Below, one piece after another: positions 43,592-64,000 of a DNA stretch of 64,000 bases; the first letter of the stretch is position 1; every line of letters begins with the position of its first letter. Source of the DNA: an uncultured Eubacteriales bacterium. GTDB taxonomy: Bacteria > Bacillota > Clostridia > Christensenellales > Borkfalkiaceae. The position numbers were made by a program, and so were the translations under genes. The notes beneath the pieces are model-generated. The model saw only the letters and a program-made list of their open reading frames with translations. It was not told the DNA's origin and ran no database searches. Location: contig UQHL01000004.1 in the NCBI GenBank assembly GCA_900540805.1, positions 101,323 to 165,322 of the forward strand. Direction: 5' to 3'.

Positions 43592-45778
43592 TTATTTATT
43601 TTCTTCGGAAATCTGGTTCTGCTTCGATCTGAATATCTTGCGGAGCTGGAACACGCCGCCGCATTCGGGGCAGCGATAGGCAAACGCGCCTTCCTTCACC
43701 GTCAGCTTCGTCGCGCAGTCGGGACAGGTTACCGACCATTTCTTGGGCGGAAGAGGTTTGGAAAGGTCGTCCTCCGTCAAGTCGTCCGCTTCAGGATATG
43801 CAGGCAGTTTATTTTCCTTTCGGGGCTGCTGATAGGCATACGTCTCCATCACCGCTTCCCTGGGAAGAGGCTCTTGGGCGGGTGCGTAAGCGGGCACCAA
43901 AGCTTTGGTCTCCGCCTTCTCAGCGGACGTTTTTGCCTCCTCTGCGTGCACGGGCGCTTCGGCTGCCGTTTCAGCCGCAGGCGCGGGCATTACGGGCGTT
44001 TCAGCGGGCGCAGCAGCAGCCGCAATCCCCGTTTCTTCCGTCACGGGCTGTTTGGCCTTGCGCATCCACTTTTCCGCCAACGCTCTCTCCACGGCGGCCC
44101 GTTCTGCGGCCGTGCGGGTTTCTTTCTTCGCCATAGCCGCTTCCGCGCGGCGCGCTTTCTTATCCGCCGCAGGCGCTTTTACAGCCTCCTCGGTTTTCTT
44201 TTCCGCTTCGGACGAAGCGGACGCCGCCGCAGGTGCAACGGATTCCACAGTCGCGGCGGGTTCCTCCGTTTTCGCTTCCGTGACTATGGGCTCTTCCGTG
44301 GGTTCCTGAACATACTGATACGGGTTAAAGGGACGATACGGACGGCCGTTCACCCATTCCTGGTTGCCGTATCCGTAAGGATTGGGATAGGGATTCATAT
44401 AAGGATTGTTATAGGCATAGCCGTAAGCGGGCTGATTGCCGTCGGGCATGGCGTTTGCGGCAGGCATCGGCGCAGGCGGCATCATCTGCGGCCCTGCAAT
44501 CATAGGCATTACCATCACGGGCTGACCGTTCGGCTGCATAAATACCGCGGGCTGCGTGATGCACTGCAGAGGAACATGGTACATTGCAGGCACATTTGCA
44601 GGCGTTTCCTGCGCCGCTGCGGCGGGCGATTCCTCAACGCGATCCGCCGAAGCCATATTATACGAATCGGGATCGAAATCCAGCTCGTCTTCGTTCTCCG
44701 AAAGGGTCTCTCCGACGGGTTCCTCAACTTTGCCCTTGACGTTGGGCAAACGGCACATACAAAATTCTTCTATCATCGCCGCCAAAGCAATCACGGCGAT
44801 GTAAAGCGTACCCATCGAGGGCACGATGCCGTCGCGTTTCTTACTTGCCACGATCAAGAGAATAAACAGAGCAGCCGACGTAACGAGAAGGAAAATTGAG
44901 AAGATTCTGAAATTCTTCATGCCGTCTCCTTCCTTGCCGTAACGATTGAACTCGGTGTCGGCAGTGGCATGCTTCAACAGCACCAGCGTCCAGACGCAGG
45001 CGAGAAGCTGAACGAAAGGGATCACCCCGTAAACGAAAACGTCCATTTTCGCCTTGAACAATTCGGTGAAAGCGCCTTTTTCCATCCATTTCAACGCATT
45101 GAGCATAAGGTTTGTACGGGAGATAAAATACATGATCAGCCCGACGAACACCAGCTGGGCGAGATTGCGGAAGAAAGGCGCCCATCTGCCGACCAGTCTC
45201 TTTTCTTCCTCGAGCGTGTCGCCCGTGGTAAACCAGCTGACGTTTCCGCCGACGAGCCCGCACCAGAAATGGAAAATCAGCCCTATCGCCACGGCGATAT
45301 AAAACAGATTGGAGAAGCCCGCGCCCGAGATGAGATGAATCATAAACGGGAAGGCGATAAATACGCAATATGTACCCGAGAAAATTTTTCCCATCCGCTC
45401 CATCGCCAGCAGATTGCGGTTATATCCGTTTACCCGCGAAGCCTTTTTCTTGAACAGGCGGCTCAGACGGGACAGCGACTTGATTACGTTGATGACGAGG
45501 GTGAGAAGCATGACGGCGTAAATCAGCGCGACAAACACGTTGACGGAAACCGCGATCGGGGAGGCCTTGATATTTTTAAGCTCGAGAAAGGGCTTCCAAA
45601 AGGTCTTTACCCACATGTCTCCCACGGATGTCCCGTAGAGCATGGGAAAGAAAGCGACCGCAGCGAGAAAAATCGTGGCGATCAGATAGAGCATACCGAC
45701 AAATTCCGCTTTGGAATGTGTTCTGGCAATGCGTTTTTTCAGAGAGACGGGCTTCGTTTCTTTTATATTTTCTTTCAT
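43592..45778 (-). CDS. large membrane protein: N-terminal polytopic domain, P/A/Y/N-rich low-complexity linker, C-terminal CxxC...CxxC zinc ribbon
   Basis: 728 aa. ~9 TM in first 330 aa. Linker with NPYMNPYPNPYGYGN. C-terminal CPDCATKLTVKEGAFAYRCPECGG. Confidence 0.7.
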   Translation of the reverse strand: MKENIKETKPVSLKKRIARTHSKAEFVGMLYLIATIFLAAVAFFPMLYGTSVGDMWVKTFWKPFLELKNIKASPIAVSVNVFVALIYAVMLLTLVINVIKSLSRLSRLFKKKASRVNGYNRNLLAMERMGKIFSGTYCVFIAFPFMIHLISGAGFSNLFYIAVAIGLIFHFWCGLVGGNVSWFTTGDTLEEEKRLVGRWAPFFRNLAQLVFVGLIMYFISRTNLMLNALKWMEKGAFTELFKAKMDVFVYGVIPFVQLLACVWTLVLLKHATADTEFNRYGKEGDGMKNFRIFSIFLLVTSAALFILLIVASKKRDGIVPSMGTLYIAVIALAAMIEEFCMCRLPNVKGKVEEPVGETLSENEDELDFDPDSYNMASADRVEESPAAAAQETPANVPAMYHVPLQCITQPAVFMQPNGQPVMVMPMIAGPQMMPPAPMPAANAMPDGNQPAYGYAYNNPYMNPYPNPYGYGNQEWVNGRPYRPFNPYQYVQEPTEEPIVTEAKTEEPAATVESVAPAAASASSEAEKKTEEAVKAPAADKKARRAEAAMAKKETRTAAERAAVERALAEKWMRKAKQPVTEETGIAAAAAPAETPVMPAPAAETAAEAPVHAEEAKTSAEKAETKALVPAYAPAQEPLPREAVMETYAYQQPRKENKLPAYPEADDLTEDDLSKPLPPKKWSVTCPDCATKLTVKEGAFAYRCPECGGVFQLRKIFRSKQNQISEENK

Positions 45779-49603: not shown

Positions 49604-50662
49604 ATGTACTATGTAAATGAAAATATTAAAAACACAAAAAGAATTTTTCCTCAACAGGGCAGATATGCGTATAAGAGATATGATATGAACGAAAATCCCG
49701 AGGGCCTTCCCAAAGCTTTTGTCGATTCAGTCCTCAAGGAAATCACGCCCGAATTTTTGTCCGTTTATCCCGAGCCTGACCGTTTTCTAAACAAATACGC
49801 TTCTTTTGTCGGGGTAAGCTACGACAATGTCCTTACGACAAACGGTTCCGACACGGCGATACGATATCTTCTCGAAACTTTCGGAGAAACGAAAAAAGAA
49901 GTTGTAACCGTCTCTCCTTCCTTTGAAATGTATGGGGTAAACTGTAACATACTCGGTTTGAAGCACGTCCCGGTCTCCTATGAAAAGGATCTGACGATAA
50001 ATATTGAAAATATTTTGCGCGCGATTACTTCCGATACCCGTGTTGTTGTTCTTTTGAACCCTAATAATCCAATAGGAAACGTTTATACCCGGGAAGAAGC
50101 GGAACAAGTGATTATCAAGGCACAACAAGTCGGAGCAATCGTTATTATAGATGAAGCTTATCACTACTTTTATAGACATACCTTTCTCGATTTTATCGAG
50201 CGCTATGACAACGTAGTTATTTTAAGAACTTTTTCAAAGCTTTTTTCGCTCGCCGCTTGTCGATTGGGGGTAATACTCGGCAATCCGGCGTTGATTTCTT
50301 ACGTAAAAAATGCCCGGTTGACATTTGACGTCAACTCCGTCGCTTTACTTTTCGGTGAACGGATTTTAGAGCGTCCCGAGTTGATTGAGTATTTAATAAA
50401 ACGGCAGGAAGAAGGAAAGAGTTACACGCTTAACCGCTTGAAGGAATATGGTTATGAATATCGGGACTGTAAAGGGAATTTTATCTTTATCAAGCCTTTG
50501 CATGACGCAAGGACTATCGCGGAAAAGCTGCGTGAAGAAAAAAAAGTTTTAGTCCACGCTTACGGCAATCCCCTATTAAAGGACTATATACGTGTTTCCG
50601 TCGGATCAATCGACGCAATGAAGATATTTCTAAATGCGTTCTTCGAGGTCGATCACAAATAG
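49604..50662 (+). CDS. class I/II PLP-dependent aminotransferase (histidinol-phosphate aminotransferase-like)
   Basis: LNPNNPIGN and the PLP-lysine context FSKLFSLAACRLG, characteristic of HisC/CobD-like enzymes. Confidence 0.8.
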   Translation: MYYVNENIKNTKRIFPQQGRYAYKRYDMNENPEGLPKAFVDSVLKEITPEFLSVYPEPDRFLNKYASFVGVSYDNVLTTNGSDTAIRYLLETFGETKKEVVTVSPSFEMYGVNCNILGLKHVPVSYEKDLTINIENILRAITSDTRVVVLLNPNNPIGNVYTREEAEQVIIKAQQVGAIVIIDEAYHYFYRHTFLDFIERYDNVVILRTFSKLFSLAACRLGVILGNPALISYVKNARLTFDVNSVALLFGERILERPELIEYLIKRQEEGKSYTLNRLKEYGYEYRDCKGNFIFIKPLHDARTIAEKLREEKKVLVHAYGNPLLKDYIRVSVGSIDAMKIFLNAFFEVDHK

Positions 50663-50692
50663 CTTTTGCTATAGGATAAGGGAAAACAAAAG

Positions 50693-52021
50693 ATGAAAAA
50701 AGTAATAACTTACGGTACGTTTGACATGCTTCATATTGGTCATATCCGTTTGCTGGAAAGAGCAAAGGCTTTAGGCGATTATCTGATTGTAGGGATTACG
50801 TCCGCAGGCTTCGATATGGCACGGGGAAAACTGAATGTCCGGCAAACTTTGACCGAGCGCATAAAAGCCGTTATGAATTTAGGAATAGCCGACGAAGTCA
50901 TTGCCGAAGAGTACGAAGGCCAAAAAATCGACGACATCAAACGCTATAACATTGATATTTTCGCTATCGGTTCCGATTGGGAAGGAAAATTTGATTATTT
51001 GAAAAACTATTGCGAAGTAGTGTATCTCGAAAGAACAAGGGGAATTTCAAGTACGGAAATCCGTTCCCGCAACGTTATACGAATGGGTATTGTAGGATAT
51101 TCTTCAATGTCGGAAAAATTTATTGAAGAATGCAAATATGTAAACGGCATAGAAGTACAGGCTATTTATACAAAATCTTACCCTCCTCCCGCTGCTTTGA
51201 GTTTTAAGGAGGCAAATGCCTGTTATCTCTTTGACGACTACGAAAAATTTCTTTCTGAAATTGACGCCGTCTATATCGTCTCCGATCCAAAGACGCGATA
51301 CGGCTACATTAAAAAAGCACTCATTGAGAAAAAGCACGTTTTGTGCGAATCTCCCGTTTCTTTAAGCCGTGAACAAACCATCGAACTGATCACGTTGGCA
51401 CAGTCGAAAAATCTCATTCTTTTTGAAGGCATAAAAACAGCCTACGTCCTTGCCTTCTCTCGACTTATTTCGCTTGTTCGCAGCGGAATTATAGGGGCAG
51501 TTAAATCCATCGATTCTACTTGCACCAGTTTAAGAAGCACTTCGGAAAATAACTGGGGAAGTCTGCTCGATTGGGGCGCGATCGCCATACTTCCGATTTT
51601 TGAAATTCTCGGTACGGAGTATATAAAAAAAGATATCATTTCCTATTTCGGCAATGCCGACGATATCGATCTGTTCACGAAAGTATCTTTTATTTATCCA
51701 AAAGCAACTGCGTCCTTAAAGGTCGGCATAGGCGTCAAATCGGAAGGAGAATTGGTTATTTCGGGAACGCGCGGTTATGTCTATGTTCCCGCTCCCTGGT
51801 GGAAAACGGAATATTTTGAAATCCGTTTTGAAAATCCTGCTGAAAACAAGAGATACTTCTATTCGCTGCATGGCGAAGGCATAAGATACGAGATATCCGC
51901 CTTTTCTGAAATCATTCAGAGAAAAACGGAAAATTATTATATTAATAACGATATTACCATTGCGATCAGCGGATTAATGGAAGATTACTGTAATAAAAAA
52001 GACGTAACGCTTATTTGCTAA
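50693..52021 (+). CDS. bifunctional protein: N-terminal TagD-like cytidylyltransferase fused to Gfo/Idh/MocA oxidoreductase
   Basis: N-terminus YGTFDMLHIGHIRLLERAK (HxGH nucleotidyltransferase motif). Residues ~130-440 carry a Gfo/Idh/MocA Rossmann + C-terminal fold. Confidence 0.75.
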   Translation: MKKVITYGTFDMLHIGHIRLLERAKALGDYLIVGITSAGFDMARGKLNVRQTLTERIKAVMNLGIADEVIAEEYEGQKIDDIKRYNIDIFAIGSDWEGKFDYLKNYCEVVYLERTRGISSTEIRSRNVIRMGIVGYSSMSEKFIEECKYVNGIEVQAIYTKSYPPPAALSFKEANACYLFDDYEKFLSEIDAVYIVSDPKTRYGYIKKALIEKKHVLCESPVSLSREQTIELITLAQSKNLILFEGIKTAYVLAFSRLISLVRSGIIGAVKSIDSTCTSLRSTSENNWGSLLDWGAIAILPIFEILGTEYIKKDIISYFGNADDIDLFTKVSFIYPKATASLKVGIGVKSEGELVISGTRGYVYVPAPWWKTEYFEIRFENPAENKRYFYSLHGEGIRYEISAFSEIIQRKTENYYINNDITIAISGLMEDYCNKKDVTLIC

Positions 52022-52067
52022 ATTGTTTGCCCTTCAATCGCACTGCGTTTTTTACAAAGGAGAAAGT

Positions 52068-52871
52068 ATGGAAAAGCTGGAAAAAATTCATTCGGTTCTT
52101 TTCGATATGTTGAGAGAAATCGCCTCTTTATGCGATAAATATGAGATCGAATATTTTTTAGATTCGGGGACGTTATTGGGTGCGGTAAGGCATCAGGATT
52201 TTATTCCTTGGGACGACGATGCCGATATCGCAATGAAAAGAAGCGAATATGAAAAATTTCTAAAGGTAGCGGACGAGCTTCCCAAGCCCTATCTTTTGAT
52301 TCAACCGCAAGATTATGGCGGATACTTTTTTGATTTTGCGCCGCGCGTCCTCAATATGGATGAACCTTTACATACGGAAACACACGAAGACATTGCACAA
52401 AATAACTATCAAAATCGTATGGCCGTCGATATTTTTTTATTGGACAATGCCCCTGATGACTTAAAAGCATTCCACAAGATGGTATTAAAGCAAAAAATCT
52501 TTTACGGATATGCAATGGCGCATCGTTTCAATAAAAAAATGCATTCGCATTCTTTAAGTGAAAAGCTGAAAATTTTTATTTTATCTTTTCTGGGAAAATT
52601 CCATTCTCTTAAAAACATTTTGAAAAAGCAAGAATGCTTAAGCACTGCTTACAACAAAAAAGACACCAACTACTATTGTTTTACAAACGTTATTCTTAAA
52701 GAAATCGGGAATCGTTATTCAAAAGAATGGTTTGATTCCTCCGTGAAGCTTCCTATACGCGACGCTCTCTTTACCTGTCCCGCGGGATACGATAAAACGC
52801 TGACTGCTTTATACGGCGACTATATGACGCCTCTGCCTCCGGAAGAACGCTATCCCTCTCATATCGATTAA
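52068..52871 (+). CDS. LicD family phospho-alcohol transferase (uses CDP-activated alcohols)
   Basis: FLDSGTLLGAVRHQDFIPWDDDADIAM, the hallmark LicD motif. AAGGAGA RBS. Confidence 0.8.
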   Translation: MEKLEKIHSVLFDMLREIASLCDKYEIEYFLDSGTLLGAVRHQDFIPWDDDADIAMKRSEYEKFLKVADELPKPYLLIQPQDYGGYFFDFAPRVLNMDEPLHTETHEDIAQNNYQNRMAVDIFLLDNAPDDLKAFHKMVLKQKIFYGYAMAHRFNKKMHSHSLSEKLKIFILSFLGKFHSLKNILKKQECLSTAYNKKDTNYYCFTNVILKEIGNRYSKEWFDSSVKLPIRDALFTCPAGYDKTLTALYGDYMTPLPPEERYPSHID

Positions 52872-52936
52872 ATTTAGATAAGGAAAAAACCGCTGCATTT
52901 TGCTATTATCAGCAGTAATTCAAAGGAGGAAATTAG

Positions 52937-53400
52937 TGGATAAAATCGCCGTGCTCGTTCCCTGCTACAACGAAAGCAACACGATCGAAAAGGTAGTAAA
53001 CGACTTCCGCCGCGTCCTTCCCGACGCGATCATTTACGTGTATGACAATAATTCCACCGACGACACCGCGGCCATTGCTCTTGCAGCCGGAGCGGTAGTT
53101 CTGCACGAATACATGCAGTGAACAGGAAACGTGATCCGAAGGATGTTTCGGGAAATCGACGCCGAATGCTATATTATGGTGGACGGAAACGATACGTATC
53201 CCGCGGAAGCCGCGCCCGAAATGGTGCGTAACGTTTTGGAAAAAAACAGCGATATGGTCGTCGGCGATCGCCCTGATCATGTGGTTCGGAGTAAATATCT
53301 GTCACGGAAATTATAAACTGATAAAAATCATTTCCACCGCCGTCGTTATGGTGTTCAACTTCGTCACAAAAAAATTGACTCTCTCTAAAAGATAAACTTT
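52937..53400 (+). pseudogene. family 2 glycosyltransferase (DPM1/GtrB-like), disrupted: in-frame TGA after ...VLHEYMQ plus internal deletion/frameshift
   Basis: 52937..53121 encodes VDKIAVLVPCYNESNTIEKVV...DNNSTDDT. An in-frame TGA is then followed by ...NVIRRMFREIDAECYIMVDGNDTYPAE... (53131..53316). A C-terminal TM remnant (ISTAVVMVFNFVTKK) sits in another frame. Confidence 0.6.
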
Positions 53401-53435
53401 TTCCAAAATTTCGGTAAAGGCCTCGTCGATTAAAT

Positions 53436-54686
53436 ATGAAATTTAACTCTCTGTTTGAAAAAGAAAATAGAAAAAAGATGGGCGACCTTTTTCTGAACAT
53501 CGGGGCGACCGCCCTGTTCAATCTCGTCATTCAGTTTGCTCTGTATCCCTATCTGAATAAAACGTTGGGAAAAGAAATGTACGGGACTGCGCTTTTTATG
53601 CTCTCTCTCGTCGCCATAGCCTCGGGCTCCTGCGGAACCGCGGCCAATTATTCGCGGTTAGTGAGCGAAAAAACGCTTCGTCCCTCCAACGGAGACTACA
53701 ATCTTTTTCTGCTTGTCGGCGGAATACTTTGCGCCGCAGTCGGTCTTTTTTATCTTTGGTGGATAAAGCTTCTCACCCCTATAACGGCAATTCTTTTCGC
53801 GGCGCTTCTCATCGTCACCGCTTTCCGTTATTATTCCGATGTGGAGTTTAAGTTAAAGACCTCTTTCGTCCGCTATTTTTTCTTTTATCTCGCCATTTCC
53901 GTCGGATATCTTCTCGGGCTTCTCGTCTATCGAAAGACAAATCAATGGATGACCGCCCTTCTGACGGGCGAAATTTTCGGCCTCGTCTATGCGGCCTTTG
54001 CAAGCAGGATCTACCGTCATCCCCTCTTGCGCCCCTCTCAAAGCTTCGGACTCGTCCTGAAAAGCATTTCTTTTCTTCTCCTTTCCAACCTTCTGGAAAA
54101 CCTCACGTTAAACGCCGACCGCCTGCTCCTATATTCTTTCGTGGACGGAACGGCGGTCTCCGTCTATTATACGGCGTCTCTTTTCGGAAAAGTCGTAGCG
54201 CTGCTCACCGTCCCCGTCAATTCGGTAATCATCAGCTATCTGATCCGCTACGACAAGGAGCTGTCGAAAAAAATGTGGAGCGTCTTTACCATCGGCGGAA
54301 TTGTCTGCGGCGCAATCTGTTTAGGCGCATGTCTCCTGTTTTCGGGGCTTATTCTGCCGCATTTCTACAACGACTTATACGCCGCCTCTAAGCCCTATCT
54401 GTTCCCCGCCATTCTCAGCCAGATTCTCTATTTCGTTTCGGGCGTGCTGTTGGTGGTGCTGCTGCGCTTCCGCGGCGAAAAGAAACAATTTTTTCTCAAT
54501 CTGGGCTATGCGATCGTATTTTTTGCGCTCACCTTAATCGCCACTTATCTTTTCGGCCTGAACGGCTTTGTGTGGGCCTCCCTGTTGGCTAACGCCCTCC
54601 GACTGGCCGTCGTCATTCCCTGGGGCTTTTTGCCGCCCCGCCGAAAGGCGGCTCCGCCTCCGCCGGAAGAAACCGAGCAATCTTAA
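53436..54686 (+). CDS. oligosaccharide flippase (Wzx/MOP family)
   Basis: 416 aa with ~12 TM. N-terminal GDLFLNIGATALFNLVIQFALYPYLNKTLGKEMYG typical of polysaccharide biosynthesis flippases. Start ambiguous (53436 or 53478). Confidence 0.7.
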   Translation: MKFNSLFEKENRKKMGDLFLNIGATALFNLVIQFALYPYLNKTLGKEMYGTALFMLSLVAIASGSCGTAANYSRLVSEKTLRPSNGDYNLFLLVGGILCAAVGLFYLWWIKLLTPITAILFAALLIVTAFRYYSDVEFKLKTSFVRYFFFYLAISVGYLLGLLVYRKTNQWMTALLTGEIFGLVYAAFASRIYRHPLLRPSQSFGLVLKSISFLLLSNLLENLTLNADRLLLYSFVDGTAVSVYYTASLFGKVVALLTVPVNSVIISYLIRYDKELSKKMWSVFTIGGIVCGAICLGACLLFSGLILPHFYNDLYAASKPYLFPAILSQILYFVSGVLLVVLLRFRGEKKQFFLNLGYAIVFFALTLIATYLFGLNGFVWASLLANALRLAVVIPWGFLPPRRKAAPPPPEETEQS

Positions 54687-54842: not shown

Positions 54843-57800
54843 TCAAAATAATGACAATTGCTGTGCCCACGGCTTTTCGAGTGCTTTTTCTCTCTTTACA
54901 TTCGAAGGCAATTCCGCAAGAAACGGCGAAGGATCGCCTCTGGTTGTCAAAACGAGCTCCTCTATTGCGCGGGTAATGCCCACGTAAAACAGGCGGCGTT
55001 CCTCTTCCTCGTCCGTTTCCCGCGAAGAAACGAGCGGCAGTACCTTTTCGGTAAGTCCGCAGAGGAATACGACGGGGAACTCCAACCCCTTGGCGCCGTG
55101 CAGCGTAGCCAGTCTCACGGCTCCCGCGGCCGCGTTTCCGCTGGGGAGCAAAACGTCGCCCTCCTTGCCCAGATACACCGCGTCGAGAAATTCGTCCATG
55201 GCCGCGTAATGCGCGGCTTTTATCAGTTCTTCAAATTCCGCGGAAGTTAAATGCAGATATTCCTTCCAGGCCGTCAAAATTTTTCTCGGTCTGCCTCCGA
55301 TAAGCGGCAGAAATTTTTCTTTCGCCGCTTCAAAATTTTCGCGCCCGCCCATAAATTCCAACGCCTGCGCTTCAGCCGCTTCGTTCTGCGCGAGCAGGGC
55401 GGCAAAAAACGCAAGGGTACCGCTCACCGCGGGCGCTTCGAGAAATTCCGTCTTACCCGAAACGACGCAGGGAATGTCGTCTCTCCTTAAACAATGCTCG
55501 ATTTGGGAAAGCTGGCGATGCGTGCGCGCAAGCACCGCAATCTCTCCAAATTCCCGCAGCCCTTCCTCCCTGCCTTTGCCGAGCATGTCCAGCCCGCCCG
55601 TCATGCGCGCGATTTCTTTGGCCACAAATATCCCCTCGGAAAGCTCCGAAGCGCAATCGACCAAACGAACGGCCGCCCCCGACGGCTTGCACGCCTCGAG
55701 CACGCGCGCGCCCGAATTATGCGAAACGACGTTCAGCGCGCAATCGATCACCTCGGGCGTCGAGCGGTAATTTTTCGTCAGCCGCACGGTAAGCGCGTCG
55801 GGATAATCCGCCGCCAGCATTGAAAAACAATCGGACGCGGCGCCGCGGAAGGAATAAATGGCCTGATCGGGATCGCCGATCGCAAACAGCCGCCCCTCTT
55901 CGCCCAGCCACAGGCGGATCAGCTCGTACTGCGCGGGATTGACGTCCTGAAATTCGTCCACGTGCAGATAACGGAATTGTTTTCCCTTTATCTTTCGCTT
56001 CAGCGCTTCGGAGATGAGATCGTCGTAATCCAGCATTCCCGCCGCCCTCAAGCGTCGGTTATATTCCGCCGCCGCGTCCGTTTCCGTCTCTTTGCCGTTT
56101 TTCACGGCGGATACATGATTCAAAAATTTGCGGGGAGCAAGCTTTATCCCGTATTCCGCGACGACCTCGGCCGCGGTTTTCAGCATAAAAGCAGGGTTCG
56201 CCAAAGCGAATTCGTCTTTCAAAAAGGAAAAACAAATTGAGTGAAAGGTGCCCACGGTAATCTTTTCCGCCGCTTTTTTCAACCGCGCCGAAAGCCTTTC
56301 GCGCATTTCGGCCGCGGCTTTGACCGTGAACGTCACCGCGGTAATCTCCGCAGGCTTCACGCCGCTTTCCACCAGGCGCACGATCCGCTCTACCAGCGTA
56401 AACGTCTTGCCCGTGCCGGGGCCGGCGACGACCGCCGTCACGCGCGCTTTGCTGTCCGCCGCGGCTTCCTGTTCGGCGTTTATTCCGCGAGGGTCTCTCT
56501 CCCCGCTTTCGTTTTCGTTTTTTTCTTCTTTCCCCTTTTTGAATTTTTCCCCACGGTCGGTTTCCCCGTCCCGCGCGGCCGCAAGGGGTAAGTCGCTTAA
56601 AAAAGACATCTGCCCGCTTGCGTTTTTCAGCTCGTCGGGGGTAAAGAGAGCTATTTTACCGTATTCTCCGTCATATCCCGCCGTTTTGATAACCCGTTCC
56701 TCGCGCAGCCGCCTTATGCCTTCGGCTATCCTCTCGCCGCCGGCCTTCTCAATATCGCCGAGCGAGCGGACGCGCAGGATTTCCGCCTCCGCCCCCAGCT
56801 TTGAAAGCAGCTTACAATATACCCGTTCCGCCTTATCGCCCGACGCGGAAATCCCCAGCGACGCGGCAATCACTTCGGGCAGGGGCATGAGATACTCGAA
56901 ACGTTTTTCTTTTTCGGAAATATATGTCTCGTCCCGTTCCGCCAACTGCTCCAGCCTGTTGAGTACCCCGATCGTGATTTTTTTACCGCAAACGGGACAT
57001 TTCCCCCCCAGCGCCCGCGTCTCCTGCGGGGTCAGTCTGAGATGACAGGCTCTGTGCCCGTCCAGATGGTATTTACCCTCCTCGGGAAAAAACTCGACGG
57101 TGCCGAGGAAGCCTTCCCCCGTATCGAGCGTCCGCTTAAGTGCGGGGTAGGAAAGCTCCGCATCTATCAGATTGCTTTCCCTGCCGAGCTTGGCGGGAGA
57201 ATGAGCGTCGGAATTGGAGACCAGCGTGTAGCGGTCCAACTGCGGAACGCGCCGATTCATGCGGGGATCGGAGGAAAGCCCCGTCTCCATGGCGCGGATA
57301 TGCGGCGCCAGGTCTCCGAAGCATTCTTCGACAGTATCGAAGCCCGAAAAAGCGCCGAACATAGAAAAATGCGGCGTCCAGATATGGGCGGGAATAAAGA
57401 TCGCTTCGGGGCATATTTCCAGCGTTATTGCGAGGAGGTCTTTCGACGACAACCCGAGTATCGGCCTCCCGTCCGAACGGATATTTCCGATAGTCTCCAG
57501 CTTCAGTGCCAGGCGTTCGGCGGCGTCGAGAGAGGGCAGCAGAATCAGATTATGAACCTTCCGCACCTTTCCGTCCTGCTTATAAATACAGCTGATCTCC
57601 CCCGATACCACGAAACGGGGTTCTATGGAAAAGTCGCAAAAATCCTTCAACCGTTTTTCAGGCTTGATACGATACAACCCCTCTTCCGCGGGTTCCAGCG
57701 TATCGGCCATCTCCCCGCGCCAGGCGGGATGCGTAAAATCGCCCGTTCCCACCAGCTCTATCCCTTTCCGACGCGCCCAAAAATCCAGATTGGGAATGTC

Positions 57801-57860
57801 TCCGTTTTTGCTTGTCGCTCTCGAATATTTCGAGTGAATGTGTAAGTCCGCTATATACAT
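54843..57860 (-). CDS. fusion protein: N-terminal EndoQ-like PHP-domain nuclease with zinc finger + C-terminal compact UvrD/PcrA-type SF1 helicase
   Basis: N-terminus MYIADLHIHSKYSRATSK..., SNSDAHSP, CPVCGKK (EndoQ/TIGR00375-like). C-terminus has Walker A AGPGTGKTF, DEFQD, YRST and GAKGLEFPVV helicase motifs. Start set at 57860 after promoter TTTACA-17-TATAAT. Confidence 0.75.
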   Translation of the reverse strand: MYIADLHIHSKYSRATSKNGDIPNLDFWARRKGIELVGTGDFTHPAWRGEMADTLEPAEEGLYRIKPEKRLKDFCDFSIEPRFVVSGEISCIYKQDGKVRKVHNLILLPSLDAAERLALKLETIGNIRSDGRPILGLSSKDLLAITLEICPEAIFIPAHIWTPHFSMFGAFSGFDTVEECFGDLAPHIRAMETGLSSDPRMNRRVPQLDRYTLVSNSDAHSPAKLGRESNLIDAELSYPALKRTLDTGEGFLGTVEFFPEEGKYHLDGHRACHLRLTPQETRALGGKCPVCGKKITIGVLNRLEQLAERDETYISEKEKRFEYLMPLPEVIAASLGISASGDKAERVYCKLLSKLGAEAEILRVRSLGDIEKAGGERIAEGIRRLREERVIKTAGYDGEYGKIALFTPDELKNASGQMSFLSDLPLAAARDGETDRGEKFKKGKEEKNENESGERDPRGINAEQEAAADSKARVTAVVAGPGTGKTFTLVERIVRLVESGVKPAEITAVTFTVKAAAEMRERLSARLKKAAEKITVGTFHSICFSFLKDEFALANPAFMLKTAAEVVAEYGIKLAPRKFLNHVSAVKNGKETETDAAAEYNRRLRAAGMLDYDDLISEALKRKIKGKQFRYLHVDEFQDVNPAQYELIRLWLGEEGRLFAIGDPDQAIYSFRGAASDCFSMLAADYPDALTVRLTKNYRSTPEVIDCALNVVSHNSGARVLEACKPSGAAVRLVDCASELSEGIFVAKEIARMTGGLDMLGKGREEGLREFGEIAVLARTHRQLSQIEHCLRRDDIPCVVSGKTEFLEAPAVSGTLAFFAALLAQNEAAEAQALEFMGGRENFEAAKEKFLPLIGGRPRKILTAWKEYLHLTSAEFEELIKAAHYAAMDEFLDAVYLGKEGDVLLPSGNAAAGAVRLATLHGAKGLEFPVVFLCGLTEKVLPLVSSRETDEEEERRLFYVGITRAIEELVLTTRGDPSPFLAELPSNVKREKALEKPWAQQLSLF

Positions 57861-57865
57861 ACTTT

Positions 57866-57894
57866 CATTATAACCTTGTTTTTCGGATTTGTAA
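57866..57894 (-). promoter_or_regulatory. promoter TTTACA-17-TATAAT for the nuclease-helicase gene
   Basis: Minus-strand hexamers immediately upstream of the ATG at 57860. Confidence 0.45.
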
Positions 57895-58062
57895 AGAATA
57901 CAAACGGTTTTCGGCAGGATTTTTTTAATAAATTTTATAAAACCGATCAAAAGTCAAAACCCCTTACCTCCCCTTCCGCAAATAACCCTATCCGTCGAAA
58001 AAATCAAAAGCCGACGACATACTTTTTCCAAAAAAACACCGACGTGAAAATTATTTTGTTGC

Positions 58063-58240: not shown

Positions 58241-58513
58241 TTAATTTTCTTCATAGTCCGCGCCCTCCGCAGCCTCTAATCCCATAAGCAACCCAAATTT
58301 GAAGCCTTCCAAATAATGATTATCTTCCGCCTCACAATTCAAAAAGTCAAGAGCTGTGGTCGCGTTTTTGTATAAGTCCAATAAATGAGGAAATTCGGAA
58401 AGCTGCGCCCTCATTTCCTCGTCTTTTTTAACAAATTCCTCTAAAAGTCTGAAATATTCGTCGCTGCACGGCACCTTTTCAAAATTTCCTCTCTCCGTGT
58501 AGTACATTTGCAT
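58241..58513 (-). CDS. hypothetical small acidic protein (divergent partner of XRE regulator)
   Basis: ~90 aa starting MQMYYTERGNFEKV (AAAAGGAAA RBS). No recognisable family. Confidence 0.5.
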   Translation of the reverse strand: MQMYYTERGNFEKVPCSDEYFRLLEEFVKKDEEMRAQLSEFPHLLDLYKNATTALDFLNCEAEDNHYLEGFKFGLLMGLEAAEGADYEEN

Positions 58514-58641
58514 AATTGCCGATTTCCTTTTCATAAATTACCTCTTTACTTTATTTAATCACAATCGTGATTATTTATATTATAGCAACCGCGATTGGTG
58601 TTTGTCAAGCATTTTAATCACGTTTGTGGTAAAATAGTAAC

Positions 58642-58845
58642 ATGGAAAAATTTATCGAAAGATTAAAAGAGTTACGCGCTCAAAAAGGATTGTCTCAGGC
58701 ACAGCTTGCCAAAGCGACGGGGCTGAGCCAAAGCGCCATAACTTATTGGGAAACGGGAAAGAGAATCCCCAACGCATATGCAGTGATTATTCTTGCAAGA
58801 TTTTTTGATGTATCAACAGATTACCTATTGGGTGAAGAAGATTAA
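58642..58845 (+). CDS. XRE-family (Cro/C1-type HTH) transcriptional regulator
   Basis: 67 aa, LSQAQLAKATGLSQSAITYWETGKRIPN helix-turn-helix. Confidence 0.8.
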   Translation: MEKFIERLKELRAQKGLSQAQLAKATGLSQSAITYWETGKRIPNAYAVIILARFFDVSTDYLLGEED

Positions 58846-58888
58846 TTTTTCCGCTGCGGAATAACGAACGGGCTTTTTATACGCAAAA

Positions 58889-58931
58889 AAAGGACTTAGG
58901 CTGATGGTGTTCAACCTAAGTCCTTTTTTTG
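58889..58931 (+). terminator. rho-independent terminator after the XRE gene
   Basis: aaggacttagg...cctaagtcctt 11-bp stem + TTTTTTT. Confidence 0.65.
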
Positions 58932-59230
58932 TTCTGGCGCAGAAGGCGGGATTTTCTACAATACTATATATTGTGTTTATTTTGAGAATATAACCACTAT
59001 ATATTGTATATTTTTGCCTTTAGTAACATTTTAGTAATATATCAAATTGTTTTTACTCTAATATAGTGCGGTTCTACGGAGCCGCTTTTTCGTTAAAAAG
59101 AGGGCCGAACCTATAAAAGTCCGACCCTCTCTCCTTTGTTCTTAACCGCGTTTAACGAGATAATTATATCACTTTCATGTTGAGTTGACAAGCGTTTTTG
59201 CTGTTGAGGGGAAAAATTAGTCAAAAACAT

Positions 59231-59650
59231 CTATTTGCTCTCAGTTGGAGCATTATCAACTAAGGCATTTACATCAATAGGTTGGAGCAAAATAGGGGTT
59301 AAACCAGGTTGAGTAGTTAATAAAGAAACTTGGCTACGAATAAACGGCATCATAATTGCTACCGTATTCTTTTTTAAAATCTCATTAGCAATTTCTTCAC
59401 TAAAATTTTCTCTTTCCAGTCTAAAAAATCCTAAAGCAGTTAAACTTAAATCAAAATTTTTCTCTTCATCAAATATTGTTGTGACTATTTGAATTTTTAC
59501 TTGATTTCTATCATCATCTTTTTCCGCATAGTCAATATTATAAGTTGACAATAATTTTAACGGTTTACCGTTTCCTTTAAATTTGAAAGAATACGCCGGA
59601 AAATAGAAACTGATCATTTCCAGCTTACTCTTGAACTCATTATCACCCAT
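59231..59650 (-). CDS. SecB-like chaperone (third component of a toxin-antitoxin-chaperone module)
   Basis: C-terminal half VAIMMPFIRSQVSLLTTQPGLTPILLQPIDVNAL matches the SecB signature region (cf. E. coli ...LFPYARE...FPxLNLxPVNFDAL). Confidence 0.6.
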   Translation of the reverse strand: MGDNEFKSKLEMISFYFPAYSFKFKGNGKPLKLLSTYNIDYAEKDDDRNQVKIQIVTTIFDEEKNFDLSLTALGFFRLERENFSEEIANEILKKNTVAIMMPFIRSQVSLLTTQPGLTPILLQPIDVNALVDNAPTESK

Positions 59651-59674
59651 TATAAGGTCTCCTTTTTTGTAATT

Positions 59675-60076
59675 TTAGGCAGCCGTCTCAACCGTATCAA
59701 TGAGCGTATAACTCCCTGATAGGTCGTAACATCCCTTCATCTCTACCGGTAATTGCATCTTTATCGGCGAAAATGCAGTTTGAAAATCTTTCTCTTCTCC
59801 GTTTTTATCGACCACTGTTACTTTTCGAATTTTTTCTAACAACTCTGGATTCTCGGAAATAAGAGAAAACAAAACCGCGCTACTTCCAACAACCTTATTA
59901 GTCCCCTGTTCCCATTTTTCTACTGCTTTTTTAGTAACTCCCATCACGTTCGCTAAAGCAATCTGGGTTAATTTAAATTTCTTTCTGAAATCTTTAACAA
60001 ATTTACTGCTAATATCAATTTCAAGATAAGAAACAACCACCCGCTCACTGTTCATTAGTCCATTAATGTTGATCAC
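59675..60076 (-). CDS. HTH (XRE/HigA-MqsA-like) antitoxin with C-terminal extension (putative chaperone-addiction segment)
   Basis: LTQIALANVMGVTKKAVEKWEQG HTH. ~60 extra C-terminal residues. 4-nt overlap with the toxin gene. Confidence 0.6.
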   Translation of the reverse strand: MININGLMNSERVVVSYLEIDISSKFVKDFRKKFKLTQIALANVMGVTKKAVEKWEQGTNKVVGSSAVLFSLISENPELLEKIRKVTVVDKNGEEKDFQTAFSPIKMQLPVEMKGCYDLSGSYTLIDTVETAA

Positions 60077-60510
60077 TTTTGGCCTCCATTTAACTCTTTA
60101 ATATATTCATCCACAAGCTCTTTTAATTTATTCCGATCGCTTGCGGAAATATTCTCGTTTTCGCCGTGTCCATGTCTATATATATGTAAAAGATATCCGA
60201 AATGGTTAATGTTATCTACAAGGACTATACAACGATATCCGTATGATTTTCCTTCTCCTCTTTCTTTATCATCGCTTCTAAGCTTCGAATAGTTTGCCTT
60301 TCTTTCTTCCCCCCAATAAATAACTTGATAAGAAGGTCTGTTTTCTCCCATCTTTAATTCTTCAGCAATATTTTGCGCAATTCTTGCCAATTCCTCTTTC
60401 CGTAATTTCTGTCTTTTTATATCTTTGATTATATTATAGGGAGTAAAAGGTTTAAATTCTTCCTGTATTTCTTCAAAATTAAGGCTGACTTTATATTCTA
60501 CATACCCCAT
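60073..60510 (-). CDS. putative RelE/ParE-superfamily toxin (HigB/Gp49-like)
   Basis: C-terminal ...YGYRCIVLVDNINHFGYLLHIYRHGHGEN...RNKLKEL resembles HigB-type toxins (cf. M. tuberculosis HigB1 ...HEANNHFRVLFFRWG). First gene of the toxin-antitoxin-chaperone order. Confidence 0.45.
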   Translation of the reverse strand: MGYVEYKVSLNFEEIQEEFKPFTPYNIIKDIKRQKLRKEELARIAQNIAEELKMGENRPSYQVIYWGEERKANYSKLRSDDKERGEGKSYGYRCIVLVDNINHFGYLLHIYRHGHGENENISASDRNKLKELVDEYIKELNGGQK

Positions 60511-60828
60511 ATACTTCTCCCAATCTTTTGTACCCTACATAATAGGGTATATCCAATATACTACAAATTAATCTTTTTGTCAACAGTTTTGGTAAAAATA
60601 TTTTTTAAATCACTACATTGATTATTTGATTTCGTTTCAATAGCAAAAAACGGAATTGATAATATTATAGCCCATAAATAGCCTGTGTCAACCCTTTACT
60701 GCCAACTTTTTTCTAAAAAGCACAAAAAACCCCGACAAAGCAGTATTACCTGCCCTGTCGGGGTGTTCTTCAATCATCATAATCATGCGAAGCAAGCACG
60801 GCTACGAGCCAAATCAGAAATATCGTAA

Positions 60829-61743
60829 TCATGCGTTCTCCTTCGGATTCGCTTTGCACCACTTTTCGCACGCTTCGGCTTCAGAAGCTCTCAACTCGTT
60901 TCTCTTGATTTCTTTTCGAGAGATATTCCAGCCAAACGAGGTCTTGAATGCAATATAAATCATCATTGTAATAATCTTTATTACAGCCGCGATAATCACT
61001 TCTTTTGACAGATTTAGTACCACGTCCGAAACCAAAGAACACACGAACACTGAAGAGATAAGCGTCGTAAATATAGACTTCACCGTATCCAACCTATCCT
61101 CACGCTCTGTGTTATACATCTCCGACGGAGATTTGCTGCTGTCTATCTCGCTTTTGAATGAAAGGATAAAGTTCGGATCATATGGCTTTACGCGAATTTT
61201 ATCACACCTGCGAATTGCCTTATACTGCTTTTGGTTTATCTCTCCGTTTTTTATCAGGGCACGGAGTTCTCGGCTTTCCAAACCTATAAAACGTTTTTCA
61301 TAGTCCTGAACGGTCAATCCCACAACGCTTAAATACTGTGTCCGCGCTCGTCTTATCACTTTTTCCGTATATTCTTCGCAATACCGCGGCACCTGTCCCA
61401 CATACTCGGAATCGCTTAACTTCTTTATAGCCTCATTCGCCTTTTTATCTGCGTCGTTATATTCTTCCGTACTTCGTCCCTTATCTCTGGCTATCTTCTT
61501 CGTCAGCATTCCTACCGACACCGTACCCGCGGCAAACCACAACGTATTGAACGTAATTTCCTTAATGCTGAAGCTTCCCGACATATCAAATACGATCAGA
61601 TAGGACGCTATCAAGGCGGTAAAAATAATAACGTCTATGATAGTCAGCAAGCCGTCCACAAATGCATTTTCTTTCTTTTCCTTAATCCTCGGCGCGTAAA
61701 TAAAAGGCGCTTCTTCTTTCTTATCTTCTATTTTCTTCATCAT
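60829..61743 (-). CDS. hypothetical membrane protein (2+2 TM with large central cytoplasmic domain)
   Basis: 304 aa. Last gene of a 5-gene translationally coupled operon. Low-GC. Confidence 0.6.
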   Translation of the reverse strand: MMKKIEDKKEEAPFIYAPRIKEKKENAFVDGLLTIIDVIIFTALIASYLIVFDMSGSFSIKEITFNTLWFAAGTVSVGMLTKKIARDKGRSTEEYNDADKKANEAIKKLSDSEYVGQVPRYCEEYTEKVIRRARTQYLSVVGLTVQDYEKRFIGLESRELRALIKNGEINQKQYKAIRRCDKIRVKPYDPNFILSFKSEIDSSKSPSEMYNTEREDRLDTVKSIFTTLISSVFVCSLVSDVVLNLSKEVIIAAVIKIITMMIYIAFKTSFGWNISRKEIKRNELRASEAEACEKWCKANPKENA

Positions 61744-62189
61744 TTGCTTTCACCTCTCAATCGTTCGTTTACAACCTCCACCTGTCCACAGTGCCGCCAC
61801 AATTCCTCAAACTCTTTGGACAGCTTGAAGCAGATCGCCCCGAGCGTATTCCCGATCGCCGCAAACGCAAAGACGAACGTCAAGCCCTCTATCGTGGCTT
61901 TCTCCATGGAATTGACCAGCGCCATAAGTCCGAACAGTACCCAGCAGATCACCGCGGCGTTAGGGCTTTTCATGACCTTTATGAGCGCTTTATACAGCGG
62001 CAGCGCGGCGCATACCACGACGACCACGAACACCCCCGACAGTGTGCTGTCCGCGTCTTTAACCACGATTACGGGCAATTTCAATATCCCTGCTATTAAA
62101 GTAGGCACGACGCAAAACGCCATGCCCACCCAATACGCGATTAATCTTGCGTTGTAGTACCACTCTTTAGAGTGCTTGATCTTCTTCAT
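61740..62189 (-). CDS. hypothetical 4-TM membrane protein
   Basis: 149 aa. ATGA overlap with the downstream gene. Confidence 0.6.
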   Translation of the reverse strand: MKKIKHSKEWYYNARLIAYWVGMAFCVVPTLIAGILKLPVIVVKDADSTLSGVFVVVVVCAALPLYKALIKVMKSPNAAVICWVLFGLMALVNSMEKATIEGLTFVFAFAAIGNTLGAICFKLSKEFEELWRHCGQVEVVNERLRGESK

Positions 62190-62862
62190 CGGATTTCTCC
62201 TTTGTCTCGCCGTCTATCTCCCGGATCGCCGCGTTTAGATCGTGCTTGATCGCCTCTTTGCTTGCCGCTCCGATATTCGTTCGGTCGATAAACTGCATAA
62301 ACGCTTTCGCATGAAATACCATAGCTTTCGTCAGCGCTTCCACGTCCTTTTTCGTGCTATCGCCCGTCTGCCCGTTGTGGTTGCTCTCGTCTATTAAACC
62401 GTTGGTGCCTTTAAGCTGTAGATCCAGCTTCTCGGAAACTTCTTTGAGCTGCTTCTTCAGTTTCCCGTTCTTGACGTTGGTATAGATGAGATAAACGACG
62501 AACACGAGAAGTTGCGCCACGCTCGCCACGGTGGAGATCGTCACTTGCTTTTCGGAAGCGGCCGCTTTTATCGCCTCCACCGCTTTTGCGTATTCGCTCC
62601 CTATCCCCGCTTGGTCCGCGTACTTTTGGACCCAGGCGAGAAATGCGTCTAAATCGAACTCGGGGTCGGGCGCGGGTGTTTCCTCGACCGTTTCGCTATC
62701 GTCGCTTGTAGCCTCGTTTGCGCTGTCCTGCGGGGCTTCTATCGACGTTTCCTCTGCGGCTGCCGAATATGTACTCGTGCCAAAAATCAGACCTATACAC
62801 ACACTCAAAAGCGCGACTAAAATCACGACAATCAACACGTTTATAATCCTTTTCTTTTTCAT
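62167..62862 (-). CDS. hypothetical 2-TM membrane protein with acidic spacer and coiled-coil tail
   Basis: 231 aa. N-terminal TM IINVLIVVILVALLSVCIGLIF. Second TM ~100-125. Overlaps the neighbouring genes. Confidence 0.6.
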   Translation of the reverse strand: MKKKRIINVLIVVILVALLSVCIGLIFGTSTYSAAAEETSIEAPQDSANEATSDDSETVEETPAPDPEFDLDAFLAWVQKYADQAGIGSEYAKAVEAIKAAASEKQVTISTVASVAQLLVFVVYLIYTNVKNGKLKKQLKEVSEKLDLQLKGTNGLIDESNHNGQTGDSTKKDVEALTKAMVFHAKAFMQFIDRTNIGAASKEAIKHDLNAAIREIDGETKEKSDEEDQAL

Positions 62863-63515
62863 CTTTCCGTCTCCTTAAAAGTTACTTCTGCGCCGTTATC
62901 GACGTATTCTTGCATTTTTGCCAATACCCTATCCGATGTCGCGGAAACTTGTTCTAAATCTATTCGACAACTTTCCAACTCACCCGCCACACCGCTTTTG
63001 AAACTCTCTATCGTTTCATTAAAAGTAGATATACTTGTTTCTAATCTTTCCTCGAAGCCCGCCAAATCGCTCGCCACGGCGTTTCTGTGCGTGTCCAAGG
63101 CCTCGTTTAATTCTTCCCGTAACGCCGCCACTTTGTCTATCAGTTCCTGAATTATAGAAGTCACCGCGAAACAGCCTTCTTCCGCCGTCACTATGCACGG
63201 TTCGATCATATACCCGCCGTTAATGAGCTTCGTTCCCATATCGTTGTACTGCTTCAGCGAAAATTCCAGATACTCCGTCCCGCCCTGTTTCAACCACTCG
63301 CAAGGCAACGTCGCCACGGGTTCTTTCTGCGTAAACGCAAACGTATAGACAGGCGCGCCGCCGTGACGCACGAATAAACGGAATAACCCGCTCTTGTTTT
63401 TCAGCCCCGATAAATCGAGGGCGATTCTTAAATCCGAGTTCTCCGACAAAACAAATGACGGAACGTCTAACCGTCCCGTCATTCCTGTAAATGCTATCGT
63501 ACGTTGTTCCGTCAT
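62859..63515 (-). CDS. hypothetical soluble protein (beta-rich N-domain + coiled-coil C-terminus)
   Basis: 218 aa. ATGA overlaps on both sides. Confidence 0.6.
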   Translation of the reverse strand: MTEQRTIAFTGMTGRLDVPSFVLSENSDLRIALDLSGLKNKSGLFRLFVRHGGAPVYTFAFTQKEPVATLPCEWLKQGGTEYLEFSLKQYNDMGTKLINGGYMIEPCIVTAEEGCFAVTSIIQELIDKVAALREELNEALDTHRNAVASDLAGFEERLETSISTFNETIESFKSGVAGELESCRIDLEQVSATSDRVLAKMQEYVDNGAEVTFKETER

Positions 63516-63844
63516 AAGATCGCCTCCTGAAGTTTCGCTTCCAGGGCGTTTATCTCGTCACGCCAGGCCTGGCGCTGCGCTTTCGTCTCCGCGTATTCCG
63601 CTTCGCTCAAAAAGCCTTCCGCGTATTTTAGCGCCTTGTAATCCGTTTCTTTAAGCTTGTTTTTTAACTCGGATATCTTAAATACCGTCGTTTCCTGCTC
63701 CGTAGCCTCGACTTTCGTGCAATAGTAATTTTCGGGATCGTCGTCCATTATCATGTATTCGTTTTCGTTACACCATGCCGCCCATTCTGAATATTCTTGC
63801 GCTTTTTCTTCTTCTAAAGGCTTTGACATTCTTTTATTTTTCAT
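63512..63844 (-). CDS. hypothetical protein, possibly phage XkdX-like C-terminal segment
   Basis: 110 aa. AAGGAGG RBS. C-terminal ...TDYKALKYAEGFLSEAEYAETK... loosely reminiscent of small phage tail-region proteins. Confidence 0.5.
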   Translation of the reverse strand: MKNKRMSKPLEEEKAQEYSEWAAWCNENEYMIMDDDPENYYCTKVEATEQETTVFKISELKNKLKETDYKALKYAEGFLSEAEYAETKAQRQAWRDEINALEAKLQEAIL

Positions 63845-64000
63845 TTTTCAACCTCCTTAATATCCGATTGCAAACCAACAAAAAATTTCATCCGCATATG
63901 CGACTGCACCGGCGGAATTAGTATAACTACAATATGCCGTAAAACCTGTCGCTGACTTTGCGCTTGCCTTAAAACTTAAAAGCGTTGTTGTCGGTTGAGC

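Follow-up and report, generated by a model that had tools for sequence, protein, structure and literature searches.

Identification of the fusion gene

A 64,000-nucleotide stretch of contig UQHL01000004.1 (assembly GCA_900540805.1, uncultured Eubacteriales bacterium), here called the window, carries on its minus strand a gene encoding a fusion of an endonuclease Q (EndoQ)-type nuclease with a UvrD/PcrA-type helicase. The whole coding sequence (54843..57860, minus strand) was a continuous open reading frame (ORF) of 1005 amino acids plus a stop codon (54843–54845), beginning with ATG at 57860 and containing no internal stop over its 1005 codons. Residues 1–18 of the product were MYIADLHIHSKYSRATSK. 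An earlier inspection of the letters alone (the sequence-only reading) had proposed a single 1005-residue polypeptide coupling the two activities, with an overlooked frameshift as a caveat. One uninterrupted ORF did encode the polypeptide; it lies on the minus strand, a point left unstated in the sequence-only reading. Every peptide quoted there was found in the translation: SNSDAHSP at residues 215–222, CPVCGKK at 288–294, GPGTGKTF at 480–487, DEFQD at 635–639, YRST at 698–701, and GAKGLEFPVV at 922–931. No internal stop or frameshift was detected, and the gene was also a single ORF, mostly spanning residues 1–1005, in all 80 of the best loci from a scan of species genomes described below. 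Full-length homologues showed 52–78% identity with the fusion protein.

Nuclease half of the fusion protein

The N-terminal half matched the NCBIfam model TIGR00375, with residues 4–403 aligned to model positions 2–374 of 374 (E = 3.7e-46), and its residues 4–413 aligned with residues 5–388 (of 400) of the EndoQ of P. furiosus (PfuEndoQ; PDB ID: 5zb8) with an E-value of 1.4e-44. An AlphaFold2 model of the fusion protein had a mean predicted local distance difference test score (pLDDT) of 80.6, and a Foldseek comparison of the model with 5zb8 gave an E-value of 3.6e-26 and a target-normalised template modelling (TM) score of 0.83. The superposition of the model on 5zb8 indicated that the PHP, zinc-binding, and helical domains of EndoQ were all retained. 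From the residue-by-residue alignment with PfuEndoQ, the stretch of residues 1–257 (57090..57860, minus strand) was assigned as the PHP-type catalytic domain, and residues 258–300 (56961..57089, minus strand), with an H-C-C-C site and a CPVCG motif, as the zinc-binding domain. Residues 301–405 (56646..56960, minus strand) were assigned as the C-terminal helical domain by the PfuEndoQ alignment and the fold match, and a weak precomputed match to Pfam PF27218 (MJ0043_C) supported this domain. A local Pfam search of residues 1–460 gave no match, PHP included, and the EndoQ assignment was therefore built on the NCBIfam, PDB sequence, and fold matches.

The score of the fusion protein against TIGR00375 (158–162 bits) was below the curated cut-off of 326.6 bits. 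The same held for a Brevibacillus protein carrying the NCBI name 'endonuclease Q family protein', which scored 264 bits; this suggested that the cut-off delimits close equivalogs and not the boundary of the family. Because the EndoQ module showed only 26–28% identity with archaeal and Bacillus-type enzymes, we regard it as a separate branch of the family.

The residues needed by PfuEndoQ are known from mutagenesis and the crystal structure (PMC5961232, PMC8307549). All seven metal ligands had counterparts in the fusion protein (H8, H10, E76, H84, H139, D193, and H195 of PfuEndoQ corresponding to H7, H9, E88, H103, H159, D218, and H220), and each of these was either invariant or shared by 120 of the 121 sequences compared, which reach down to 52% identity. 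The lesion pocket consisted of T162, E192-T-G194-L195-S196, and N216. In this pocket T162, E192, G194, L195, and S196, corresponding to T142, E167, G169, L170, and S171 of PfuEndoQ, were invariant in the 121 sequences; L168 of PfuEndoQ was replaced by an invariant threonine, T193, and the position of N191, here N216, varied among N, H, and D. The proposed wedge residue W144 of PfuEndoQ corresponded to H164 (histidine in 120 of the 121), with an invariant tryptophan, W161, three residues before it. The zinc ligands H269, C272, C288, and C291, again invariant throughout the alignment, formed an H-C-C-C variant of the four-cysteine site of PfuEndoQ in which the first cysteine is replaced by histidine.

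Helicase half of the fusion protein

Residues 459–985 (54906..56486, minus strand) were identified by Pfam, PDB, and Foldseek searches as a superfamily 1A (SF1A) helicase of the UvrD/PcrA/Rep type. In Pfam this half matched UvrD-helicase (E = 8.9e-55) and UvrD_C (E = 2.4e-36), as well as AAA_19; the sequence match to PcrA (PDB ID: 1pjr) had an E-value of 1.5e-62, and the top Foldseek structures were PcrA, UvrD, and Rep at E-values of about 1e-37 (3.6e-38 for 3pjr). The Q motif and motifs I, Ia, II, III, IV, V, and VI were invariant in a 53-sequence alignment, with the motif residues at Q464, G480–T486, T510–T512, D635–D639, G662–G673, Y698–R699, H921–F928, and V960–A965.

The 1A and 2A cores aligned with those of PcrA, and the 1B region was shorter. 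Between the PcrA-aligned blocks there were 69 residues, compared with 132 in PcrA (402–534, the 2B domain). The corresponding part of the fusion protein, residues 805–897 (55170..55448, minus strand), was assigned from the PcrA alignment and the model as a reduced, all-helical 2B-like subdomain; it had six helices in the model and was poorly conserved in sequence. The alignment of the helicase half with PcrA stopped at residue 620 of 724 of PcrA, and the score against the PcrA equivalog model TIGR01073 was 287 bits against a cut-off of 911. The name PcrA, found in some records, is thus not appropriate for this protein.

These results agree with the domain assignments of the sequence-only reading. 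Its EndoQ-like N-terminal half was substantiated by the TIGR00375 match and by the sequence and fold matches to 5zb8, the half aligning with EndoQ and not with a polymerase-type PHP domain or histidinol phosphatase. The complete set of SF1 motifs that it had placed in a shortened UvrD-like scaffold proved to be invariant, in a scaffold in which 2B is cut to about half. The models TIGR00375, UvrD-helicase, and UvrD_C each matched the expected half.

Linker and predicted clamp-binding motifs

The sequence QL[S/D]LF is a textbook consensus for binding of the bacterial β-clamp. The fusion protein ended in QLSLF (residues 1001–1005; 54846..54860, minus strand), which from this consensus was predicted to be a β-clamp-binding motif. 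A C-terminal Q[LIVMF]x[LIVMF][FLWY] was present in 119 of 120 homologues, the lone exception being a shorter sequence of 862 residues, and the roughly 15 residues ahead of QLSLF were unconserved, in a tail predicted to be disordered. Among 124 diverged long representatives, the C-terminal motif was found in 92, and many of the others had QxxLF variants.

A second, internal motif that resembles clamp-binding sequences, GQMSFL (residues 416–421; 56598..56615, minus strand), was predicted from its conservation. The pattern G-Q-[LIMTV]-S-[LF]-[FL] occurred in 119 of 121 close homologues, and 83 of 121 diverse representatives had a looser Qxx[LF][FL] at the matching offset. By comparison with shuffled sequences, the chance expectation for such clamp motifs was about 0.1 per protein. 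GQMSFL lies 15 residues beyond the point where the EndoQ fold ends, where a disordered, charged linker begins (residues 422–458; 56487..56597, minus strand). This linker was delimited by pLDDT, which was below 50 across residues 417–457 of the model, and by its low conservation: the mean identity to the query was 10% in the linker, 72% in the nuclease module, and 57% in the helicase module, and the linker length varied among homologues. This sequence pattern indicates that both modules are under purifying selection and that the linker drifts freely. The location of GQMSFL matched that of the C-terminal motifs of short bacterial EndoQs (401–464; table in PMC4858679 Suppl. Fig. S1). From this correspondence, the sequences suggest that the fusion arose when a short, clamp-binding EndoQ was joined to a helicase with its own clamp motif.

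Distribution of the fusion

A HMMER scan with the nuclease module returned 3592 cluster representatives (50% clusters), of which 1031 had E-values at or below 1e-30. When the best 150 were inspected for length, they were mostly 1000–1250 amino acids long, and the helicase was present in 124 of the 124 that had at least 950 residues. Relatives were encoded in at least 596 species genomes, with one genome scanned per species, mostly of gut Clostridia. The best 80 of these loci were all fusions, from Oscillospiraceae, Ruminococcaceae, Lachnospiraceae (Blautia, Enterocloster bolteae, Hungatella, Dorea, and Eisenbergiella), Christensenellaceae, and Peptostreptococcaceae, together with Acetivibrio and one metagenome-assembled genome of Treponema. 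The window itself probably derives from a gut metagenome-assembled genome resembling Christensenellaceae. The sequence-only reading had recommended a survey of Clostridia; the fusion proved to be common and not unusual.

No match was found among 50,697 phage records or among 2.9 million viral contigs, and a search of plasmids likewise gave no fusion, its single match being a standalone EndoQ on a Brevibacillus megaplasmid. When 828 ORFs from the 80 loci were clustered, no conserved neighbour emerged; no family occurred in more than 12 loci or at a fixed position. Many of these loci had a -10 box and a ribosome-binding site of their own just upstream of the fusion gene. The lack of a conserved neighbour, together with these upstream signals, indicated that the fusion gene is autonomous, and it behaves like a chromosomal housekeeping gene.

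In the databases consulted the homologues are named 'PcrA' or 'ATP-dependent DNA helicase pcrA', or 'UvrD-helicase domain-containing protein'. Several entries in the same 90% clusters (P0121, P0124, P0125, P0132, and P0142) were pieces of the fusion, 229–766 amino acids long, under names such as '3'-5' exonuclease' and 'ATP-dependent helicase', by which the fusion is hidden in annotation. These short entries look like contig-end or start-site artefacts.

Start codon and promoter

Some gene callers start the gene at an upstream TTG (57950), giving a form of 1035 amino acids (P0001). We prefer the ATG at 57860 to this start, because nearly all homologues begin with M-Y-I-A-D-L-H and because the 30-codon extension from the TTG overlaps a near-consensus promoter; translation of the extension is very unlikely. 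The promoter, TTTACA-17-TATAAT (57867..57895, minus strand), is sigma-70-like and matched the consensus at 11 of 12 positions. Since only 6 nt separate the end of its -10 box from the ATG, and no Shine-Dalgarno sequence was found before this start codon, the mRNA of the fusion gene, as judged from these signals, is probably leaderless. The layout without a leader was kept only in the closest clade (L001, L002, and L016); other clades had a -10 box near -39 and a Shine-Dalgarno sequence, that is, a conventional short leader.

Relationship with known enzymes

EndoQ nicks DNA 5' of deoxyuridine (dU), deoxyinosine (dI), and apurinic/apyrimidinic (AP) sites (PMC4357722). Bacterial homologues were noted in the same study, in which the step after the nick was proposed to be either synthesis with strand displacement or 'removal by helicase activity' (Shiraishi et al. 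2015, PMC4357722). The C-terminal PCNA-interacting protein (PIP) box of archaeal EndoQ binds PCNA with a dissociation constant of 55 nM and is required for the stimulated cleavage (PMC4858679), and bacterial homologues carry β-clamp motifs, QL[D/S]LF (Shiraishi et al. 2016, Sci Rep 6:25532, PMC4858679). In Suppl. Fig. S1 of that paper, short forms of 405–464 and long forms of 945–1244 amino acids are listed, all ending in QL[D/S]LF. The tabulated long forms are from Desulfobacterota, Myxococcota, Actinobacteria, Chloroflexi, Bacteroidetes, Verrucomicrobia, Spirochaetes, Alphaproteobacteria, and 'Clostridiales bacterium 1_7_47FAA'; a helicase is never mentioned in the paper. The fusion protein is like these long forms in its EndoQ N-terminus, in a size of about 950–1250 amino acids, and in its QL[D/S]LF end, a likeness judged from the tabulated lengths and motifs. 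The example from Clostridiales bacterium 1_7_47FAA (WP_008716654), which like the present source belongs to Clostridia, has 1117 amino acids and a C-terminal QLSLF.

According to Miyazono et al. (2018, PMC5961232), EndoQ was split in a 2017 paper into three families 'based on the domain organization', and the helicase domain may already have been named in that division. The EndoQs that have been assayed, those of P. furiosus, T. kodakarensis, M. acetivorans, and B. pumilus/subtilis, were apparently all of the short form, and no paper on the helicase fusion was found in the accessible literature. The impression in the sequence-only reading that the fusion had not been characterised therefore held, within the literature that was accessible, for biochemistry; it did not hold for the existence of such proteins, since the long form with its C-terminal clamp motif was already catalogued in 2016 (PMC4858679). 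The present analysis adds that both modules are intact at the residue level, that 2B is reduced, that a further clamp motif lies inside the chain, and that the fusion gene has neither a partner gene nor an association with mobile elements. The fusion protein is an ordinary member of a widespread and consistently under-annotated long-form EndoQ family.

With archaeal EndoQ (P. furiosus PF1551; PDB IDs: 5zb8 and 7k30–7k33) the nuclease half shares the three-domain architecture, the metal ligands, and the zinc finger with CPxCG; most of its pocket residues agree as well, and in both a clamp-binding motif follows directly on the helical domain. It differs in that the identity is 27–28%, that histidine, threonine, and histidine replace W144, L168, and the first zinc cysteine, respectively, that a bacterial β-clamp motif takes the place of the PIP box, and that a helicase of about 550 amino acids is added. 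The short-form bacterial enzymes of the Bacillus pumilus/subtilis type and Brevibacillus laterosporus WP_031414379 also belong to the TIGR00375 family, and that of B. pumilus was reported to nick at dU, dI, and AP sites (PMC5961232). The Brevibacillus protein showed 26% identity, and its 393 amino acids end right at the end of the EndoQ fold, without a helicase. With PcrA, UvrD, and Rep (PDB IDs: 1pjr/3pjr, 2is1, and 1uaa) the C-terminal half shares the helicase motifs and the RecA-like 1A and 2A cores at about 25–30% identity; compared with PcrA, its 2B domain is roughly half the size, 1B is shorter, and PcrA residues ~620–724 are replaced by about 30 residues ending in QLSLF.

Proposed mechanism and alternative explanations

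We consider it probable that the gene encodes a single-polypeptide, clamp-tethered DNA repair enzyme that nicks 5' of a deaminated or abasic base and unwinds the DNA from the nick. By analogy with the binding of archaeal PIP boxes to PCNA, the two β-clamp motifs, GQMSFL and QLSLF, would draw the enzyme to DNA-bound clamps. The conserved residues of the EndoQ module suggest that its pocket receives a flipped-out nucleotide, either deaminated or abasic (dU, dI, deoxyxanthosine, or an AP site), and that it cuts the phosphodiester immediately 5' of the lesion, which would leave a 3'-OH and a lesion-bearing end with a 5'-phosphate. The module is predicted to be connected through the flexible linker of about 40 residues to the compact SF1A helicase, of 3'-to-5' polarity. 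The helicase would then load at the nick and track 3'-to-5' on the undamaged strand, so that the lesion-bearing strand would be peeled off as a 5' flap or a single strand, and a clamp-bound polymerase could extend the 3'-OH, with a 5' nuclease and a ligase completing the repair. Our confidence in the strand choice of the helicase is lower than that in the clamp-tethered repair enzyme as a whole.

The steps after the nick are proposed by analogy with the action of UvrD in nucleotide-excision and mismatch repair and of PcrA with a plasmid nicking initiator. UvrC acts with UvrD in nucleotide-excision repair, MutH-MutL with UvrD in mismatch repair, and RepC/RepD with PcrA in rolling-circle replication, in each case in trans. 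The proposed reaction would resemble these partnerships in a site-specific nick, 3'-to-5' unwinding from the nick, and clamp-dependent resynthesis, whereas here the nickase and the helicase are in one polypeptide and the lesion would be recognized by EndoQ.

Several observations weigh against this proposal. The differences from PfuEndoQ in the wedge and the pocket (H164 at W144, threonine at L168, and N, H, or D at N191) mean that the substrate range may differ, and the protein scores under the TIGR00375 cut-off (158 against 326.6 bits). The 2B domain regulates UvrD, PcrA, and Rep and contacts duplex DNA in them. With this domain halved, the helicase may behave atypically. How the two modules are oriented relative to each other was of low confidence in the model (predicted TM-score, 0.58), and no biochemistry on a long-form EndoQ was found in the accessible literature. 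The strand on which the helicase loads, and whether it unwinds or merely translocates or recycles the nuclease, are pure inference.

In one alternative explanation the enzyme is a replication-coupled scanner. The helicase would then be a translocase on single-stranded DNA (ssDNA) or a nuclease-recycling motor at forks, and would move or release the clamp-tethered EndoQ without strand displacement, uracil or hypoxanthine being cut in nascent or template DNA. The two clamp motifs do point to the replisome, archaeal EndoQ acts on ssDNA too and PCNA stimulates it, and the truncated 2B domain could alter unwinding. However, the residues for coupled translocation and unwinding are all conserved, a nick in template ssDNA at a fork would lead to double-strand breaks, and the sequence gives nothing that would separate such a scanner from strand displacement; we consider it unlikely. 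The protein could also be simply the organism's PcrA with an accessory N-terminal domain, acting in the essential PcrA tasks of RecA removal and resolution of replication-transcription conflicts. In favour of this, the name 'ATP-dependent DNA helicase pcrA' is given to a homologue in one source, and PcrA was the best-scoring NCBIfam and PDB helicase match. Such a role is nevertheless very improbable for a protein that scores 287 bits against an equivalog cut-off of 911, lacks the last ~100 residues (after 620), and has a halved 2B domain.

A role in restriction of phage or foreign DNA was also considered, in which DNA with uracil or other non-canonical bases would be cut and then unwound or degraded, in the manner of GajB in Gabija. 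In that system GajB is a UvrD-like helicase encoded beside the gene for GajA, an OLD-family ATPase/TOPRIM nuclease. The helicase half matched the GajB models of PADLOC (best E = 1.3e-69), but these matches covered generic UvrD sequence only, no PADLOC defence model matched the nuclease half, and neither GajA nor any other conserved partner was present in the 80 loci. The fusion gene adjoins a mobile-element insertion site in the window, yet it is the adjoining element that varies by strain and the fusion gene that is constant. Although a review allows an antiviral role for bacterial EndoQ (PMC8307549), conservation of the gene in at least 596 species genomes and clamp-binding motifs typical of replication and repair factors make such a role quite improbable. 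Finally, only the unusual length of the protein would favour an artefact of assembly or annotation in which a sequencing error merged two adjacent genes. The chance of this is negligible: it was ruled out by the intact ORF here, in independent assemblies of the same protein, in the 80 species genomes, and in 124 diverged representatives.

The step that follows the EndoQ nick has been an open question since 2015, with strand-displacement synthesis or an unidentified helicase as the candidates (PMC4357722). Conservation of a fusion over hundreds of bacterial species points, as 'Rosetta-stone' evidence, to a UvrD/PcrA-type helicase and the sliding clamp as the working partners of EndoQ. We suggest tentatively, and with more doubt than conviction, that the helicase-fused and doubly clamp-tethered form is a major bacterial version of EndoQ, a self-contained machine for nicking, unwinding, and handover to the clamp-bound polymerase, in which the two motifs could fill both pockets of one β dimer. 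Such a machine would provide the downstream step that is missing from alternative excision repair begun by EndoQ, and would make a UvrD-type helicase the natural partner of EndoQ. As a single, mesophilic, and easily expressed protein, the fusion could allow the whole EndoQ step to be reconstituted. Labels such as 'PcrA' and 'UvrD-helicase' leave the lesion-specific nuclease half unmentioned in abundant gut Clostridia. For an EndoQ specialist the fusion would be no surprise; it offers a clean, testable handle on the downstream step of EndoQ-initiated repair.

Other features of the window

The fusion gene is flanked in the window by a gene for a membrane protein and a DUF6809 gene. The DNA upstream of it (~58600–64000) varied between strains that encode the identical protein (compare L081–L084): one assembly had ppk/ppx/pfk genes there, and others had elements bearing integrase, Bro-N, or ERF. 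An HTH (helix-turn-helix) gene (58642–58845) and the DUF6809 gene (58241–58534) were constant upstream genes across the strains. Because of this variation upstream of an identical protein, the part of the window at 59–64 kb, with its small unannotated genes, is probably a mobile element that is specific to the strain and sits at a hot spot for insertion. Three consecutive small genes at 59231–60510 (minus strand) resembled a tripartite toxin-antitoxin-chaperone module, made up of a weakly RelE-like toxin (60073–60510), an MqsA/HTH_3-type antitoxin (59675–60076), and a SecB-like chaperone (59231–59650).

On the other side, a LicD-type cluster at 49604–54686 (plus strand) runs convergent to the fusion gene. 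It encodes an aminotransferase, a fused cytidylyltransferase/GFO-IDH-MocA oxidoreductase, LicD, and a multi-pass membrane protein of 416 amino acids without a Pfam match, and suggests a phosphocholine or teichoic-acid-like surface decoration. The gene at 43592–45778 (minus strand) encodes a 728-residue protein, also without a Pfam match, in which N-terminal transmembrane segments are followed by a long low-complexity region rich in Pro, Ala, and Glu and by a zinc-ribbon-like C-terminal end of the form CxxC...CxxC. A SpoIIE sporulation phosphatase with SpoIIE_N and SpoIIE domains is encoded at 39213–41519 (plus strand), which suggests that the source organism is an endospore former or is descended from one.

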